A stretch of DNA of 46,657 nucleotides from a virus (UHGV-0180138), one strand, 5' to 3'. Positions 434 to 39,053 are shown, counted from the stretch's first letter. Program-made: numbers and translations. The notes: a model not told the origin generated them from the letters alone.

Positions 434-688
434 CTATTCCTCCGGCAACATCAATACATAGACATCACTGAATGCATCTGGACGACAAATAAATCCTTTA
501 TGCGTTAACGCGACGAAAGCATCATGCACCGTATGAACAGGAAGTTCACACATTGCGGCTACTTCTTCGCGTGATACGTGCGTCCGGCGTTTATTGTCTG
601 TCTTTTCTGCCAACGCCATTAAGACAAGTTTTTGAATCGGGCTGTTAAGTTTTACCTTCCATGCCTCATTCATCAGGTGCATACTCAT
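434..688 (-). CDS. winged-helix DNA-binding protein, replication-O N-terminal-like
   Basis: 84 aa; segment LNSPIQKLVLMALAEKTDNKRRTHVSREEVAAMCELPVHTVHDAFVALTHKGFI matches the pattern of phage replication protein O N-terminal winged-helix domains; first gene of leftward operon. Confidence 0.5.
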   Translation of the reverse strand: MSMHLMNEAWKVKLNSPIQKLVLMALAEKTDNKRRTHVSREEVAAMCELPVHTVHDAFVALTHKGFICRPDAFSDVYVLMLPEE

Positions 689-994
689 TGATTTTTCTCC
701 TATGGTTAAAATGAACGCGCTGGCGGATATCCCATTATCATTAGATAGCAGTGATTGACCGCTTAACAGATCCCGCCGTTGCGTGATATTTGTTTTTCGC
801 TTCGCAGCGACACCTGGTTTTTAAAGAGCATAAGGTATGCGCCTTTTTGTGCTATTCCGTTATCTTTTTTCTTGCGTCTTTGCAACTATGGCCTTACCTT
901 GTCTGCAAGTTTACAGAATGGCGTTTTTGGGTCAAGACTTGAAAAATACATTTTGTGACTTGTATCAAACTTTTTGAGGTTATAGGGTAGCGAC
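689..994. promoter_or_regulatory. divergent control region between leftward replication operon and rightward repressor gene
   Basis: 306-bp non-coding gap between divergently oriented genes; contains variant GTTTACAGAATGGCG motif (909-923) and a TTTTTCGCTTCGCAGCG stretch (about 803-822) resembling the element at 23859 and 36726. Confidence 0.5.
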
Positions 995-1642
995 ATGAAA
1001 ACAAAATGGTATGACTTAGCAAAGCAGCTCATGCGAGCGCAAGGTATGAGCCAAGATTCACTCGCGGATCTCATGGGGATAACTAAAGGCGGCCTGTCAC
1101 ACTGGCTTAACGGTCGCCGCGAGCCAAATCTTGAAGATATTGCGCGGATTATGCGGGCGCTTGGTCGTCGGCAATTCACTGTTACACATGATGGAATGGT
1201 CATTGATGATTCTGTTTCTAACACGTTACCGGGAGCGCCGCAGCGTGATTTAGGCAGTTACCCGGTTGTTGACTGGAAGGACACAGTAAACAATATGGAT
1301 GATACAAGGCTATCAACATTACCACACGTTACGACTAGCGTTATTTGTTCAGATGATAGTTACTGGCTGGTTGCCAAAGGTGAATCAATGAACGCACCGC
1401 AAGGGTTGAGTATCCCTGCCGGGACGATGATACTTGTAGACCCGCACGCGCCAGCTATTGACGGCAAACTGGTTATAGCCCAGCTTGAGGAAGGGCAGAT
1501 ACCGACGTTTAAACAGTTGATTATTGATGGAGGTCAAAGGCTTTTACGTTCGCTCAATCCGCTGTATCCGCCAATCCCTATGAATCCAGAATCAAAAATT
1601 ATAGGCGTGGTGGTTGATGCGAAGATTGTAAACCTGCCATAA
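995..1642 (+). CDS. CI/LexA-like repressor (XRE-type HTH + S24 peptidase domain)
   Basis: 215 aa; N-terminal HTH (QDSLADLMGITKGGLSHWLNGRREPNLEDIARIM), C-terminal S24 fold with Ser in GESM and downstream Lys (FKQL); SD-like AGGGTAG before ATG. Confidence 0.85.
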   Translation: MKTKWYDLAKQLMRAQGMSQDSLADLMGITKGGLSHWLNGRREPNLEDIARIMRALGRRQFTVTHDGMVIDDSVSNTLPGAPQRDLGSYPVVDWKDTVNNMDDTRLSTLPHVTTSVICSDDSYWLVAKGESMNAPQGLSIPAGTMILVDPHAPAIDGKLVIAQLEEGQIPTFKQLIIDGGQRLLRSLNPLYPPIPMNPESKIIGVVVDAKIVNLP

Positions 1643-1751: not shown

Positions 1752-1765
1752 GTATACAAAATGGA
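1752..1765 (+). promoter_or_regulatory. conserved motif GTATACAAAATGGA abutting -35 of early promoter
   Basis: Instance of recurring TACAAAATGG core; ends 1 nt before TTGACT. Confidence 0.5.
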
Positions 1766-1794
1766 TTGACTCGATGTTTTACGGGGCGTATATT
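1766..1794 (+). promoter_or_regulatory. sigma70-type early rightward promoter
   Basis: TTGACT (1766-1771) - 17 nt spacer - TATATT (1789-1794); near-consensus. Confidence 0.65.
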
Positions 1795-2141: not shown

Positions 2142-2432
2142 ATGAGCGTTACAATTATGTATGGCAAATGTGACAGTAAACTGAATGCCAGGGAACGCAG
2201 AAGGATAAAAAGAGAAAACGAAAGAAAATCATCACCTGCAATCAATAAAACAGACAATGTGGATAAAGCTATTCGATTTGCAAACGAGGAAAGATGCAAA
2301 CCAAATAGCATTAAAGAACGTCGCAAAGGGCCAGTAAAATGGTATACGGAAAATGAAAGCGGCAGCTACTACCACGCAACGCAACCACGCCATTTAGGGG
2401 AAAAACCCCTGGATAAAGTCCGCTACCATTAA
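2142..2432 (+). CDS. small basic protein with arginine-rich motif, N-like antiterminator candidate
   Basis: 96 aa; NARERRRIKRENERK resembles the arginine-rich RNA-binding motif of lambda/P22 N; first gene after nut-like leader; SD GGAGA. Confidence 0.45.
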   Translation: MSVTIMYGKCDSKLNARERRRIKRENERKSSPAINKTDNVDKAIRFANEERCKPNSIKERRKGPVKWYTENESGSYYHATQPRHLGEKPLDKVRYH

Positions 2433-2462
2433 TACAAAATGTAAACATCCGGAGGTGACATT

Positions 2463-5861: not shown

Positions 5862-5960
5862 CCGAGTGATTCCGATCACATAAATATACATTATGTATTG
5901 TGATCGCATATCCGTTTTGTAAGCCAAAATCAAAAGGTTTACGGTGCGGAGGAAGCAAAA

Positions 5961-6179
5961 ATGGAACGCGAATTGATGCTTTATTGCGTAGAAGGTGGCG
6001 TAGGTCACGATGCCTACGTCGCCGGGAAAGGCTATCCAGCCGATGAAGTGCTTTCTAATATGCACTTCAGAGAAAATGAAAGCCAGGTGTCTGTGTGGAA
6101 ACGATGCATTGATGGTATTGAGGTTGTAAGTATAGAACGGTATTTAGGCACGTTTGATTACGGTGTTATTGAGGCTTAA
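5961..6179 (+). CDS. hypothetical protein
   Basis: 72-aa ORF. Confidence 0.45.
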   Translation: MERELMLYCVEGGVGHDAYVAGKGYPADEVLSNMHFRENESQVSVWKRCIDGIEVVSIERYLGTFDYGVIEA

Positions 6180-9880: not shown

Positions 9881-9961
9881 GTTTACAAAATGGCGTCATT
9901 GCGTGATGCGGATCACATAATGGCGCTTTTTGCCTTGTTTTGGGGTATCCATTTTGTATAC
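9881..9961. promoter_or_regulatory. inverted pair of conserved motif (GTTTACAAAATGGCG at 9881-9895 plus; GTATACAAAATGGA at 9961-9948 minus)
   Basis: Direct reading; intergenic gap after methyltransferase gene. Confidence 0.5.
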
Positions 9962-10038
9962 TTCAAGCAAACAAAATGCTCTTTAAAAATCCGGCAGCGC
10001 TGAAATGCGTAGAAATCACCTGAAAAGGAGAGAGCATT

Positions 10039-11239: not shown

Positions 11240-11418
11240 AAAACGAAGTTAAAGATCTGCAAATAGATATTCAGCGCGACGAACGTGATTTAGAGACGGT
11301 CCGACAAATCCAGGCTTTCCACATGCGCGAATTACTTGCGCTGAAAGAGTTTGAAAGAAAGCTGGTGCAATCCATTTCTGATCGTAAATGCCTTATTGCT
11401 CGTTACGGGGGGAAATAA
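11236..11418 (+). CDS. hypothetical protein
   Basis: 60-aa ORF. Confidence 0.45.
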   Translation: MKNEVKDLQIDIQRDERDLETVRQIQAFHMRELLALKEFERKLVQSISDRKCLIARYGGK

Positions 11419-12140
11419 TGAATTTAGAATCCATTCTGAAATTCCACTTCCCAAAATCACCGCGATTATCAGACGAAAGCCGGGGAACATCACCTGATGC
11501 ACTTAATACTACTGATGCGCTTACCGCCGCTGGTATGGCGCAATCGCGCGTAGAGCTTGGTTATAGCGCTTTTCTAGGGAAGATGGAACTATCACAAGCC
11601 GAAAAACACAGGGCCGTAGTTTTGCTTACAGAGCGTTTAAGAGCTATGGCAAAAGATTACGAATACGTCATGGAACTGGAGGAGAGCCAGCGCAATGATT
11701 TTATTATTCTTGTTGCCGTTTTCGCGTTTCGGGATTATTGCCAAAGCGCCGCGACGGAAAAAACTTGTATGGAGTGCGGCGGATATAAATTTACGTTTGA
11801 CGAATACGGAGAAAAACACCTTTGCAAAAAATGCAAGGGGCACGGGAAAGTTCGCAATCATTGTAAACAATGCAAGGGGCGCGGCGAGATACCGGATAAA
11901 ACAGCCAGCAATGCGGCAGAAATGCCAGTCTTCAAAACGTGCCAGCACTGTGGCGGGCGCGGGTACTCGCGTTTCCCGGTAGATCTCGTCCGGCAGGCTG
12001 TTAACCAGCTTGTTTTCCCGGTAAGCCGATCAACATGGTGGAAGAAATACAGGGTTTTCTATGAGGACGCCATAGCGGAGCTATTCAAAGAAGAAGCCCG
12101 CGCGGAAAGCGAAATCAAGCGAGTGACACGGGGTGAATAA
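11418..12140 (+). CDS. Q-like late regulator candidate with four CxxCxGxG zinc-finger repeats
   Basis: Follows ninG-rusA as Q does in lambdoid phages; CMECGG/CKKCKGHG/CKQCKGRG/CQHCGGRG; start ATG 11418 overlaps upstream stop; function inferred from position. Confidence 0.35.
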   Translation: MNLESILKFHFPKSPRLSDESRGTSPDALNTTDALTAAGMAQSRVELGYSAFLGKMELSQAEKHRAVVLLTERLRAMAKDYEYVMELEESQRNDFIILVAVFAFRDYCQSAATEKTCMECGGYKFTFDEYGEKHLCKKCKGHGKVRNHCKQCKGRGEIPDKTASNAAEMPVFKTCQHCGGRGYSRFPVDLVRQAVNQLVFPVSRSTWWKKYRVFYEDAIAELFKEEARAESEIKRVTRGE

Positions 12141-16421: not shown

Positions 16422-16623
16422 TGAGTCGAAATTAGGCTGTTTTGAGGAAGGCGCACAGTATACGGCTGAAAAACCAATGGGATTGTCCCCTAAATTTCCG
16501 TTTATCGTCGTGACTGACACTTACGGTCACTTATGGTATGCAGGGCCGCTAGGCGGTATTGGTCGTTATGTTGTCCGTAGTTGTGATGGGGCGATGAAAG
16601 TTACCTTTACGGAAGAAACATAA
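16405..16623 (+). CDS. small protein, member 4 of tandem paralog family
   Basis: ATG 16405 after SD GGGGGTG; LTCNESKLGCFEEGAQYT ... DTYGHLWYAG. Confidence 0.5.
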   Translation: MILTCNESKLGCFEEGAQYTAEKPMGLSPKFPFIVVTDTYGHLWYAGPLGGIGRYVVRSCDGAMKVTFTEET

Positions 16624-16641
16624 ATGTGATCTACCTCGCAA

Positions 16642-33099: not shown

Positions 33100-33146
33100 A
33101 ACCCACCACGCTAACTTGATTTACTGACCTTTCCCTTTGGCTTCCT

Positions 33147-33186
33147 TATACAAAATGGAGTCGTTGAAGTAAAGCCATTTTGTATA
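33147..33186. promoter_or_regulatory. perfect inverted repeat of conserved motif: TATACAAAATGG (33147-33158) / CCATTTTGTATA (33175-33186), 16-bp spacer
   Basis: Direct reading; between leftward lipoprotein genes and rightward tape measure gene. Confidence 0.55.
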
Positions 33187-33226
33187 AAATAGATACACAG
33201 ATCACATTTTTGCATGAGGTTAAATC

Positions 33227-36458: not shown

Positions 36459-36614
36459 TTAGTTAAGTTCCTTCAGGAAGAAGTCCCGGTATTCATCTTC
36501 TTTCGCATTCATCATGAATTGACCGTATTTGAATGCGTCGTCGAAACCCTTAACGATTGCTATTTCCACTTGTTCGAATGCGTTGTTTAGCATTACCACT
36601 ACATAGCGTTTCAT
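36459..36614 (-). CDS. small protein, possible partner of downstream toxin-like gene
   Basis: Start set at ATG 36614 after strong SD AAGGAGG (track ORF extends to 36689); 51 aa. Confidence 0.45.
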   Translation of the reverse strand: MKRYVVVMLNNAFEQVEIAIVKGFDDAFKYGQFMMNAKEDEYRDFFLKELN

Positions 36615-36684
36615 TTTGGGCCTCCTTCGTTGGTACTGCTTTTCTTCTTGCTTTCTGTATACATCTTGTTTAGTGCCATGTGAA

Positions 36685-36699
36685 GCCATTTTGTAAACT
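36685..36699 (-). promoter_or_regulatory. conserved motif AGTTTACAAAATGGC (minus orientation) at head of leftward cassette
   Basis: Reverse complement of GCCATTTTGTAAACT; oriented with the leftward genes. Confidence 0.5.
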
Positions 36700-36725
36700 A
36701 GCTATAATCATTGTGATGTAGATCT

Positions 36726-36757
36726 CATTTTTCGCGTAGAAGCGCGTAAAGATATAT
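36726..36757 (+). promoter_or_regulatory. second copy of conserved element (CATTTTTCGCGTAGAAGCGCGTAAAGATATAT) upstream of tail gene M
   Basis: 27 of 31 positions identical with 23859-23889. Confidence 0.45.
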
Positions 36758-36782
36758 ACAAAGTGTAACTTATGGGGGTTTT

Positions 36783-37136
36783 ATGCCGGAAGTGTTCAGA
36801 TGGACGCCGCAACGAAGCTACAGCGTGACCAGGGAGCCAGACGTATCTGTTGTTAAGCTGGGCGATGGTTATGAGCAAAGACAGGTAAAAGGTATCAATC
36901 CATTGCTTGATAGCTACACCCTGGTGTTTAAAGGCAGTAGCGCCGGATGTGGTGATAGTGGAAACGTAGCAATCCAGGCGGAAGCATTCTTGAGGGCGCG
37001 CGGCGCGGTCGAGGCTTTTTACTGGTCGCCGTCGATGGATAACGTGCAAAGGCTTTTTGTTTGCCGTAGTTGGAGCATGACCAAAGACGGACCGCTATAC
37101 ACGCTAAACGCAACATTTGAGCAAGTTATTAATTAA
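36783..37136 (+). CDS. minor tail protein M (lambda gpM-like)
   Basis: FRW...GDGYEQRQ...FYWSPS...FEQVIN parallels lambda gpM (FRW...FGDGYSQR...FLWTPP...FEQVVN). Confidence 0.8.
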   Translation: MPEVFRWTPQRSYSVTREPDVSVVKLGDGYEQRQVKGINPLLDSYTLVFKGSSAGCGDSGNVAIQAEAFLRARGAVEAFYWSPSMDNVQRLFVCRSWSMTKDGPLYTLNATFEQVIN

Positions 37137-38049: not shown

Positions 38050-38218
38050 TTCGCCCACCATTGAATTTAATAGGTTTAATCCGGTAGCCCATGACTCGAT
38101 CATCTTTTTCTGATAGGTCTAAGGCCGTATCTAATGCGTCGCCAGGATTATCGAATTCAGCCTCGACATCACGCCCATTACTCATAAATAAGGTGAGTAT
38201 CCATAACTTATCATTCAT
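38018..38218 (-). CDS. hypothetical small protein
   Basis: 66-aa ORF, first gene of leftward cassette. Confidence 0.45.
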   Translation of the reverse strand: MNDKLWILTLFMSNGRDVEAEFDNPGDALDTALDLSEKDDRVMGYRIKPIKFNGGRNEKMALRCLD

Positions 38219-38232
38219 CCTGCGCCCCTTGT

Positions 38233-38247
38233 TCCATTTTGTTAACT
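38233..38247 (-). promoter_or_regulatory. variant of conserved motif (AGTTAACAAAATGGA, minus orientation) upstream of leftward cassette
   Basis: One-base variant of GTTTACAAAATGG; oriented with leftward genes. Confidence 0.4.
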
Positions 38248-38348
38248 TACCCTCCGTTTGAGTAAAATATACATATTGTAAAAACCGCGATCAATCCATT
38301 TTGGTATGATTTAGCGTGACGCAGATCACAAAATCAGAAGGTGAATAA

Positions 38349-39053
38349 ATGCGCAATATACCTACAGAAATGATTATTGATTCCGTCGATGCCGGAGTCG
38401 GCGCGGTCATTGACCTGTTCGAACTGGACCTTACGCCAATGGGTGGCGAGGTTATCCGCTTCCATTCCGGCGCAAACGGCTATTACGGCCCGGTTATCTG
38501 GAAGGGCGTGGCTTACAACAGCTACCCGATCGAGGCGACGGGCTTCGAAATGAAAAACGAGGGTGTTTATTCGCGTCCTCAAATGGTTGTAGCCAACATT
38601 GGCGGGCTAATCACAGGGATGAATAACGATTTCAACGACCTGCGAGGAATGAAGGTTACGCGCCGCCAGGTGGAGGTTAAATACCTGGACGCCGTTAACT
38701 TCCCTAACGGCAATCCAGACGCAGATCCATCTATTGAGGCTGTATCTTTTTACGTCGTTGAAGCAATGAGCGAAGAAACAGCGGATCAGGTGCAATATGA
38801 ATTGTCAACGCCAATTGATGCAGATAAAGCCGTTATCCCAGGGCGCACCATCCTTGCTGACGTTTGTCAGTGGCAATACAGAGGCGACGGGTGCATGTAT
38901 TCTGGCGGCCCGGTCGCAACTGATAAAGATACACCAACAAGTGACCCAACGTTAGACAAATGCAGCCACCGCCTTAGCGGTTGCCGTTTGCGTTTTCCGC
39001 GTCCGGCAGCACTGCCGATCTCCTGTTTCCCTGGTTCCAGCAAGGTAGGTTAA
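38349..39053 (+). CDS. minor tail protein L (lambda gpL-like)
   Basis: LFELDLTPMGGE...GFE...TGM...LDAVNFPNGNPDADP...PGR..LA..CQWQYRGDGC.YSG...PTSD..DKCSHRLSGC parallels lambda gpL. Confidence 0.85.
   Translation: MRNIPTEMIIDSVDAGVGAVIDLFELDLTPMGGEVIRFHSGANGYYGPVIWKGVAYNSYPIEATGFEMKNEGVYSRPQMVVANIGGLITGMNNDFNDLRGMKVTRRQVEVKYLDAVNFPNGNPDADPSIEAVSFYVVEAMSEETADQVQYELSTPIDADKAVIPGRTILADVCQWQYRGDGCMYSGGPVATDKDTPTSDPTLDKCSHRLSGCRLRFPRPAALPISCFPGSSKVG

Follow-up and report, generated by a model that had tools for sequence, protein, structure and literature searches.

The immunity repressor C1 of phage P1 acts through 22 dispersed, asymmetric 17-bp operators (consensus ATTGCTCTAATAAATTT) that belong to separate operons, including that of the inactivator gene coi (PMC8546580). 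The stoperators of L5 and its cluster A relatives are numerous, dispersed, short and largely asymmetric sites with a biased orientation relative to transcription (PMC9283540, PMC6550527); they lie within transcription units, stop elongation and are recognized by a monomeric repressor that carries two DNA-binding domains and reads an asymmetric 13-bp site (PMC9283540). In the mEpimmI group of temperate coliphages, which comprises mEp021, mEp010, mEp515 and MagusPhagus, immunity is conferred by the CI-like repressor Rep021, the N-like protein Gp17 works at three nut sites, and the operators were left undefined (PMC11893012). Reportedly, these phages match the lambdoid phages in frequency among Escherichia coli isolates from the human gut and form a new family-level group, and we found no definition of their operators or promoters in the searchable literature. 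Here we analysed a short motif, GTTTACAAAATGGC, that recurs along a 46,657-nt stretch of viral DNA (UHGV-0180138; the whole stretch is referred to below as the window). The motif is a real, conserved regulatory element. Judged from sequence, it most likely serves as a genome-wide set of operators for the mEpimmI repressor, and one repressor probably controls many phage and accessory genes.

The window shares 85-91% identity with the temperate coliphages mEp021, mEp010, mEp515 and MagusPhagus and belongs, as a relative of mEp021, to the same mEpimmI group of temperate coliphages; its immunity region is present as a chromosomal prophage in 35 of 5,426 complete E. coli genomes. Allowing up to two mismatches, GTTTACAAAATGGC was found eight times (909+, 1752+, 9881+, 9948-, 16643+, 33174-, 36685- and 38233-), against 0.70 expected and a maximum of three in 100 dinucleotide-preserving shuffles. 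The shuffled control bears out the view of the initial annotation, made from the same sequence, that such recurrence exceeds chance, and its coordinates proved correct to within 1 nt. The copy at 33146-33159 (+), 1 nt away from the earlier figure, is the ninth and forms the inverted partner of the 33174 copy; the two make up a perfect 12-bp inverted repeat, as had been described, with a 14-nt gap between the 14-mers. Weaker copies were recovered with a position weight matrix (PWM) and the palindromic model described below (997+, 16671-, 38295-, 2430, 5884, 36657, 38267 and 44833), bringing the total to at least 12 sites at at least eight loci across 46.6 kb. A literature search with the motif sequence returned unrelated primers only.

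The motif copies are non-coding and conserved across more than 80 related contigs. Since a greedy open reading frame (ORF) cover of the window placed spurious ORFs in true gaps, the location of the copies was tested on the curated annotation of mEp021, in which all eight sites with a PWM score of at least 18 (seven loci) fall within the 12.6% of non-coding sequence (p ~5e-7), in agreement with the intergenic placement proposed earlier. The motif is kept at homologous positions in 44 immunity-region loci and 43 tail-region loci.

The 14-mer is best read as the conserved part (consensus half plus inner part) of a 17-bp pseudo-palindromic operator, GT(A/T)TACA-AAA-TGG(A/C)nnn. The asymmetry noted in the initial annotation is thus right in part, the TGG half being non-symmetric. 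The two-fold symmetry is plain in the family palindrome of the homologous repressors, whose ideal operator is GTATACA-N3-TGTATAC. Scanning the window with this palindromic model at a minimum of 11 of 14 positions gave nine matches against 2.18 expected and added the sites at 2430-2446, 5884-5900 and 44833-44849. The site at 9945-9961 (GTATCCATTTTGTATAC) agrees with this ideal in 13 of 14 positions and the one at 36657 in 12; most window sites reach 10-11/14, their right half conserving TGG only. Alignments of the relatives at 9881-9961, 33146-33187, 36657-36698 and 38230-38308 revealed that the operator arms are conserved (some of them invariant), with variable spacers and accessory-gene flanks.

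The copies occupy two fixed positions relative to predicted promoters. In the first geometry, the forward 14-mer lies at about -49 to -36 (operator centre ~-41) and abuts a -35-like hexamer or overlaps it by 3 bp. Clear cases are the rightward early promoter PR, at which TTGACT-17-TATATT, the window's best promoter match, begins immediately after the copy at 1752-1765, exactly as the initial annotation had placed it, and a strong leftward promoter, TTGATC-17-TATATT (38294..38266); the promoter-like sequences following the 16643, 33146, 33174 and 36685 copies are weaker. In the second geometry, the reversed motif lies over the -10 with its centre at ~-16. The leftward promoter PL (TTGACC-16-TAAACT, 935..908, minus strand) has a spacer and -10 that are the reverse complement of the 909 copy, and a candidate promoter, TTGTTT-16-TATACT, overlaps the 9948 copy in the same manner just upstream of nutR2. 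In mEp021 the second geometry is also seen at 16565, within the early right operon, and at 6062, before the helicase gene. Where it abuts a -35, the consensus half is directed away from it, and its reverse complement, GTWTAC together with the complement of the conserved 5' A, supplies the opposite promoter with a -10-like TWTACT. The motif is promoter-proximal, in line with one of the original suggestions, and far more frequent than chance would give. The accompanying statement that every copy is oriented with its downstream genes is correct within the window, inverted partners excepted, and fails in the relatives: 6062(+) of mEp021 sits in a leftward operon and 16565(-) in a rightward one, both against the local genes. 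The orientation pattern is therefore a by-product of operators occupying the -41 or the -16 position.

To look for partners, every gap of 6-23 nt was scored for an inverted copy against all positions of the window. The best-scoring partner was found at a gap of exactly 14 nt in six of ten sites, which sets the 17-mers 25 bp apart centre to centre, so that one operator of a pair is centred at ~-41 and the other at ~-16. The partner score ranks in the top 0.01% of window positions for 33146/33174 and at 0.05% for 16643 (these two pairs being within the top 0.05% of all positions), at 0.24% for 38295, at 0.6% for 36685 and at 8.6% for 1752. The 9881/9948 pair is unlike the others, its members being 64 bp apart with the hairpin of the t4 terminator between them.

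The window encodes a CI-like repressor, Rep (215 aa), in the gene at 995..1642 (+), identified by Pfam (HTH_3 and Peptidase_S24) and PHROG matches. Rep aligns with the lambda repressor structure 3BDN over residues 15-208 (E = 3.9e-19), and by this alignment is a homologue of lambda CI over both domains; by analogy it should bind as a dimer, and it is quite likely to be the protein that binds the motif sites. The arrangement resembles that of lambda CI (and also of P22 c2 and 434 cI) in several respects: the repressors are homologous over both domains, the operators read as 17-bp pseudo-palindromes with a consensus and a non-consensus half, they overlap early lytic promoters on both sides of cI, neighbouring operators are 25 bp apart against 24 bp for lambda OR1/OR2, a spacing of about 2.3 helical turns at which dimers can bind cooperatively in pairs, one operator lies at -42 of the candidate cI promoter and the acidic patch aligns. 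Unlike the triple clusters OL and OR of lambda, however, PL and PR here have one strong operator each, with at least ten further sites at at least six other loci (in the tail-gene, nin and nutR2 regions); transcription of cI leads away from PL and not from PR, the TGG asymmetry is strong and conserved, and CRP-like sites stand alongside the operators.

Comparison with distant repressors links the operator to its putative protein. A scan of species-representative genomes for Rep homologues returned no close one, only the distant Providencia/Moellerella type; searching with the N-terminal 74 residues of Rep gave fragments only, and the full-length search yielded useful intermediates. Homologues in a classical cro/cI arrangement were found in six other prophage lineages, represented by contigs L047-L049 (IMG/VR), L050 (Moellerella wisconsensis), L051 (Providencia stuartii), L155 (Enterobacter roggenkampii), L156 (metagenome) and L153 (Citrobacter). 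The distant repressors are 37-50% identical overall, with ~60% identity of the helix-turn-helix domain in the one pair compared, and most carry the N-terminal arm MK(T/M)KW. Each lineage has three sites in the cro/cI gap (L050, 3916-3993; L051; L049, 9904-9993; L155, 126-201; L156, 2412-2487; L153, 2420-2500), which are RTATACA-N3-(T/C)GTATnn 17-mers in five of the six and of the (A/T)AATAC(A/G) type in Citrobacter L153; the left half-site of the lineages equals the 5' half of the window motif. The sites are offset by 33-34 and 26-27 bp in the five lineages other than L153. In L050, a promoter scan placed the centre of one site at -16 relative to the cro promoter and those of the other two at -43 and -16 relative to PRM. 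Reverse-complementing AGTATA, which joins the 5' flanking A to the first bases of the left half, gives TATACT, the -10 of the cro promoter, as at PL of the window. These uncharacterised Providencia, Moellerella, Enterobacter and Citrobacter prophages resemble the window in their homologous repressors, operator family (RTATACA-N3-TGTATnn) and -16/-43 geometries, and differ from it in having the classical three operators in one cro/cI gap with at most one extra dispersed site seen. Such an extra site, GTATACAtta, was observed ~2.6 kb downstream of cI in the Providencia-type loci L047-L051.

A divergent relative, the P0013 phage (L150-L152), is syntenic with the window and has a repressor that is only 55% identical overall with an identical recognition helix (ITKGGLSHWLNGRREP). 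The window-type motif is kept there in four places: in the cro/cI gap, abutting the PR -35, as a pair flanking the region before nutR2, and before a pRha/ANT gene. The last of these comprises two perfect copies in tandem, GTATACAAAATGGC and GTATACAAAATGGA, at a distance of 39 bp from each other at L150 8556-8608 (-), directly before the pRha/ANT antirepressor gene, the second copy including its Shine-Dalgarno sequence; in L152 the sites are retained with a different gene behind them. Within the mEpimmI type, three to five sites are kept in the 9-kb tail region of 43 contigs, and 37 contigs of another phage group (minor tail protein 70% identical) gave one match in 327 kb. On this sequence comparison the motif is group-specific and tracks the recognition helix of the repressor.

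A second motif accompanies the operators. The CRP consensus TGTGA-N6-TCACA (often AAATGTGATCT) was matched with at most one mismatch seven times against 1.17 expected, five of the seven matches being beside operators. The CRP-like sites lie at 954-969, 5865-5880, 9902-9917, 16625-16640, 36712-36727 and 38315-38330, and at 33191-33206 with a weaker right half. Their half-sites are conserved in the relatives with variable centres, and measured from predicted (not mapped) starts these centres fall at -61.5 (954-969, PL), at ~-59.5 to -63.5 and at -70.5, which are class-I-like positions; CRP sites are typically centred at -41.5, -61.5, -71.5 and so on from the start. This points to cyclic AMP (cAMP)-CRP as a host input at most motif-side promoters. 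The CRP-like site at 9902-9917 doubles as the arms of the t4 terminator hairpin.

In the arrangement that we infer from these data, Rep dimers would bind the dispersed 17-bp operators. At the -16 operators (PL and the nutR2-proximal promoter, and the helicase promoter in relatives), bound Rep would occlude RNA polymerase from the -10; at the -41/-16 pairs, two dimers, possibly cooperative, would cover -49 to -8 in the way lambda CI does at OR1/OR2. In a lysogen, Rep may then silence several promoters at once: PL with the replication genes, PR with the genes for recombination and the N-like antiterminator, the promoter that supplies nutR2 and the Q-like gene, and the conserved platforms driving variable accessory genes, including the unit with an antirepressor-like domain. 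The operator at PL, here termed O_L, also stands ~42 bp upstream of the predicted start of a candidate cI promoter, where lambda CI would be placed to activate PRM. Once Rep is gone, the CRP-like sites would set promoter strength.

This organization is similar to that of P1, where a single immunity repressor also uses many dispersed 17-bp operators, each with its own operon, that of coi included, and the antirepressor-like units here carry two to three operators. However, C1 is unrelated to lambda CI, the operator sequences are unrelated, P1 is a plasmid prophage, and the sites here are pseudo-palindromic and often in inverted pairs. The comparison suggests that genome-wide networks like that of P1 can also be run by a repressor of the lambda CI type; the one proposed here would extend into the tail-gene region with conserved platforms for variable accessory genes. 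The analysis yields a testable operator model in which at least 12 sites are mapped and a likely regulon is outlined.

Several observations weigh against a dispersed set of repressing Rep operators. Most window sites carry TGG instead of the symmetric TGT, and further out their right half departs from the consensus. Within the group, the DNA-binding domain of Rep is invariant while the operators vary between TGG and TGT, natural variants in relatives showing the more symmetric TGT with Rep unchanged; as the N-terminal domain of Rep is essentially invariant, covariation within the group is uninformative. At PR only the -41 operator is strong, its -16 partner being weak (8.6th percentile) with an unconserved left half, and several motif-side "promoters" fail a standard sigma-70 consensus scan. 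Moreover, -41/-42 is an activating position in lambda, that of OR2 relative to PRM. Rep might be mainly an activator at the -41 sites, serving its own gene and accessory "moron" platforms in lysogens, with only the -16 operators repressing. In the alignment, D21 and D25 of Rep fall opposite E34 and D38 of lambda, which make up its acidic positive-control patch, and both the poor -35 and -10 elements of most motif-side promoters and the accessory, variable nature of the downstream cargo would suit activation. We nevertheless regard it as unlikely: PR and the 38294..38266 promoter of the antirepressor-like unit share this geometry, and a lysogen should keep both of them silent; at most -41 sites there is a -16 partner that would repress; and the P0013 phage has two perfect copies directly before its ANT antirepressor gene. 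A version in which Rep is a genome-wide dual regulator, the -41/-42 operators and the D21/D25 patch activating its own gene and the accessory platforms that combine CRP-like site and operator while the -16 operators keep lytic promoters off, is similarly doubtful. If -41 sites did activate, prophage accessory genes would be tied directly to the lysogenic state, and under dual regulation the prophage repressor would turn on lysogenic-conversion cargo, with cAMP-CRP as the tuning input.

The protein in question could also be a different one. Lambda-type Cro shares the CI operators, and the first gene of the leftward operon (434..688, -) encodes an 84-aa protein in the "cro position", with a MarR/HTH assignment by PGAP in relatives; this small winged-helix protein, a Cro-type protein sharing the operators, or the Q-like protein might be the ligand. 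This seems improbable, since the CI homologue is the only protein common to the window and the six lineages with related operators, the 84-aa protein has a PHROGs match to the N-terminal domain of lambda-O-like replication initiators, and the P0013 phage keeps the motif with an HTH_3 Cro-like protein in place of it. The L5-type stoperator named in the initial annotation, which would block elongating RNA polymerase inside transcription units, shares with the present sites the dispersal of a largely asymmetric repressor site (PMC9283540), and up to three copies stand where a roadblock is plausible, downstream and in the orientation of transcription: 38230-38246 at ~+13 to +29, 2430-2446 at the end of the N-like gene and 9881-9897 at the end of the early operon. 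This proposal was mostly wrong and has very little probability for the motif as a whole, because most copies overlap promoter elements (-49 to -8), many form inverted pairs 25 bp apart, and Rep is a lambda CI homologue of the dimeric CI/S24 family, with an S24 dimerization/cleavage domain, not a monomeric repressor of the L5/TipsytheTRex type (PMC9283540). Even less credit can be given to a host-factor site or an UP-element-like module read by E. coli RNA polymerase or a host regulator. The motif is A-rich, its -49 to -36 placement overlaps the proximal UP-element region, and it sits between CRP-like sites and the -35. Reversed copies over the -10 make no sense for an UP element, however, and the 14-mer is group-specific, only one match turning up in the 327 kb of 37 enterobacterial phage contigs with the shared tail module; it follows the repressor recognition helix across lineages and has no relevant match in the literature searched. 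A host regulator, also among the earlier suggestions, is unsupported for the 14-mer itself, the adjoining CRP-consensus motif at most copies being a separate element. Among the candidates offered at the outset, the dispersed operator of the CI-like repressor is thus the best supported here.

With Rep operators as the preferred reading, the sites can be followed along the window. In the immunity region, the leftward replication operon starts at 688 (-), and no HTH_3 Cro-like gene was seen in the window, the P0013 relative having one. O_L (GTTTACAGAATGGCGTT, 909..925, +) is centred at -16 of PL and ~-42 of the candidate cI promoter (-10 TACATT, 947-952), and it is conserved in 44 relatives. The first codons of rep (ATG AAA ACA AAA TGG, encoding MKTKW) make up a weak copy of the motif at 997-1013 (GAAAACAAAATGGT), which may have arisen by chance from the coding of the N-terminal arm or may serve autoregulation. 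Downstream of rep follow a terminator, the strongest promoter match (TTGACT-17-TATATT, 1766-1794), nutR1 and the N-like gene (2142-2432). The PR operator (GTATACAAAATGGATTG, 1752..1768, +) is centred at -41 and abuts or overlaps the -35 TTGACT; its weak partner at 1777-1793 has no more than GTATAT in common with the -10 and little else in common with the family site. A palindromic-type operator-like site (TAATACAAAATGTAAAC, 2430..2446, +; 11/14) lies at the N-like stop codon, and its exact sequence recurs in 37 of the 44 relatives. Another palindromic operator-like site (ATATACATTATGTATTG, 5884..5900) occupies an intergenic gap with a decayed motif copy at 5911-5924 (-), and its equivalent in mEp021 is GTTTACAAAACGGA.

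The operator at 9881..9897 (+), with which the initial annotation was concerned, lies directly 3' of the stop codon of a cytosine-methyltransferase gene and upstream of the t4 hairpin, in a position annotated as TERM_4 in mEp021. The near-palindromic operator at 9945..9961 (-; GTATACAAAATGGATAC), invariant among relatives save for one A/G position, overlaps the spacer and -10 of the candidate TTGTTT-16-TATACT. This candidate promoter (9934-9968) is directly upstream of nutR2; it would account for the third nut site, because its transcripts never pass nutR1. The boxA of nutR2 (TGCTCTTTAAAAA, 9977-9989, +) is just 3' of the 9948 copy, that of nutL lies at 818-830 (-) and that of nutR1 (CACTTTAAAAA) at 1838-1848, positions that agree with those reported for the group (PMC11893012, section 3.5). 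The Q-like gene (11388-12140) comes next, followed by the late genes. The motif itself was rejected as a nut site, which would combine a boxA (CGCTCTTTAACAA-like) with a boxB hairpin 3' of it on the transcript: boxA and boxB elements adjoin it yet are distinct, and most copies are upstream of the predicted start. The PWM gave a false positive on a boxA-like sequence in L150 (TCTTTAACAAAATGGA), and for that reason the 38233 variant (GTTAACAAAATGGA) was checked for boxB; no conserved boxB was found downstream of it. Inspection by eye also ruled out that the motif supplies a -35 (TTTACA) or sigma-54 elements (TGGC...), no -10 or -12 being present at the required distance and no usable -35/-10 pair within it, and DnaA, ArcA, OmpR, CpxR, TyrR and MarA boxes show only partial resemblance and none explains the conserved AAAATGG.

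An operator pair at 16643..16684 (16643-16659, +; 16668-16684, -) lies upstream of a 52-codon ORF (16701-16859) that has a good ribosome-binding site and is followed by a GC-rich hairpin (16864-16883); the unit of pair and ORF is present in MagusPhagus and absent from mEp021. The tail genes are interrupted by three leftward accessory units. The pair at 33146..33187 (33146-33162, +; 33171-33187, -) is found between one leftward accessory-gene unit and the tape-measure gene, and in 43 relatives its right arm is invariant and its left arm nearly so, with a variable 14-nt spacer and an unalignable accessory flank. The operator at 36682-36698 (-) and its family-type partner at 36657-36673 (GTATACATCTTGTTTAG) lie upstream of a leftward ParE-like unit. 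The ORF at 36459-36689 (-) has an ORF-finder start at an ATG within the motif (AAAATGGC); its PHROG match covers residues 26-76 only, so the true start is probably further downstream and the operator intergenic. Three operators accompany the TTGATC-17-TATATT promoter within 38230..38308 (-): 38292-38308 at -41, 38267-38283 at -16 and 38230-38246 at ~+13 to +29; the unit behind this promoter encodes a protein with a KilAC/ANT-like domain. Beyond the tail region, an operator-like site (TTATACATATAGTAAAC) is located at 44833..44849, 3' of the J gene, with a weak copy at 44895.

The three tail-region blocks (33100-33226, 36600-36790 and 38180-38350) each combine a CRP-like site with an operator pair and are conserved in 43 relatives (L070-L112), while the leftward accessory genes behind them differ from one relative to another. 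They look like fixed "expression platforms" with exchangeable cargo, which in the window consists of VasI-like, BamE-like, ParE-like and KilAC/ANT-like-domain proteins. In MagusPhagus (L002, 8350-8500), a CRP-like site followed by GCATACAAAATGTA was observed upstream of an annotated lipoprotein gene, of a type tied to superinfection exclusion (PMC11893012), and this gene may belong to the same regulon.

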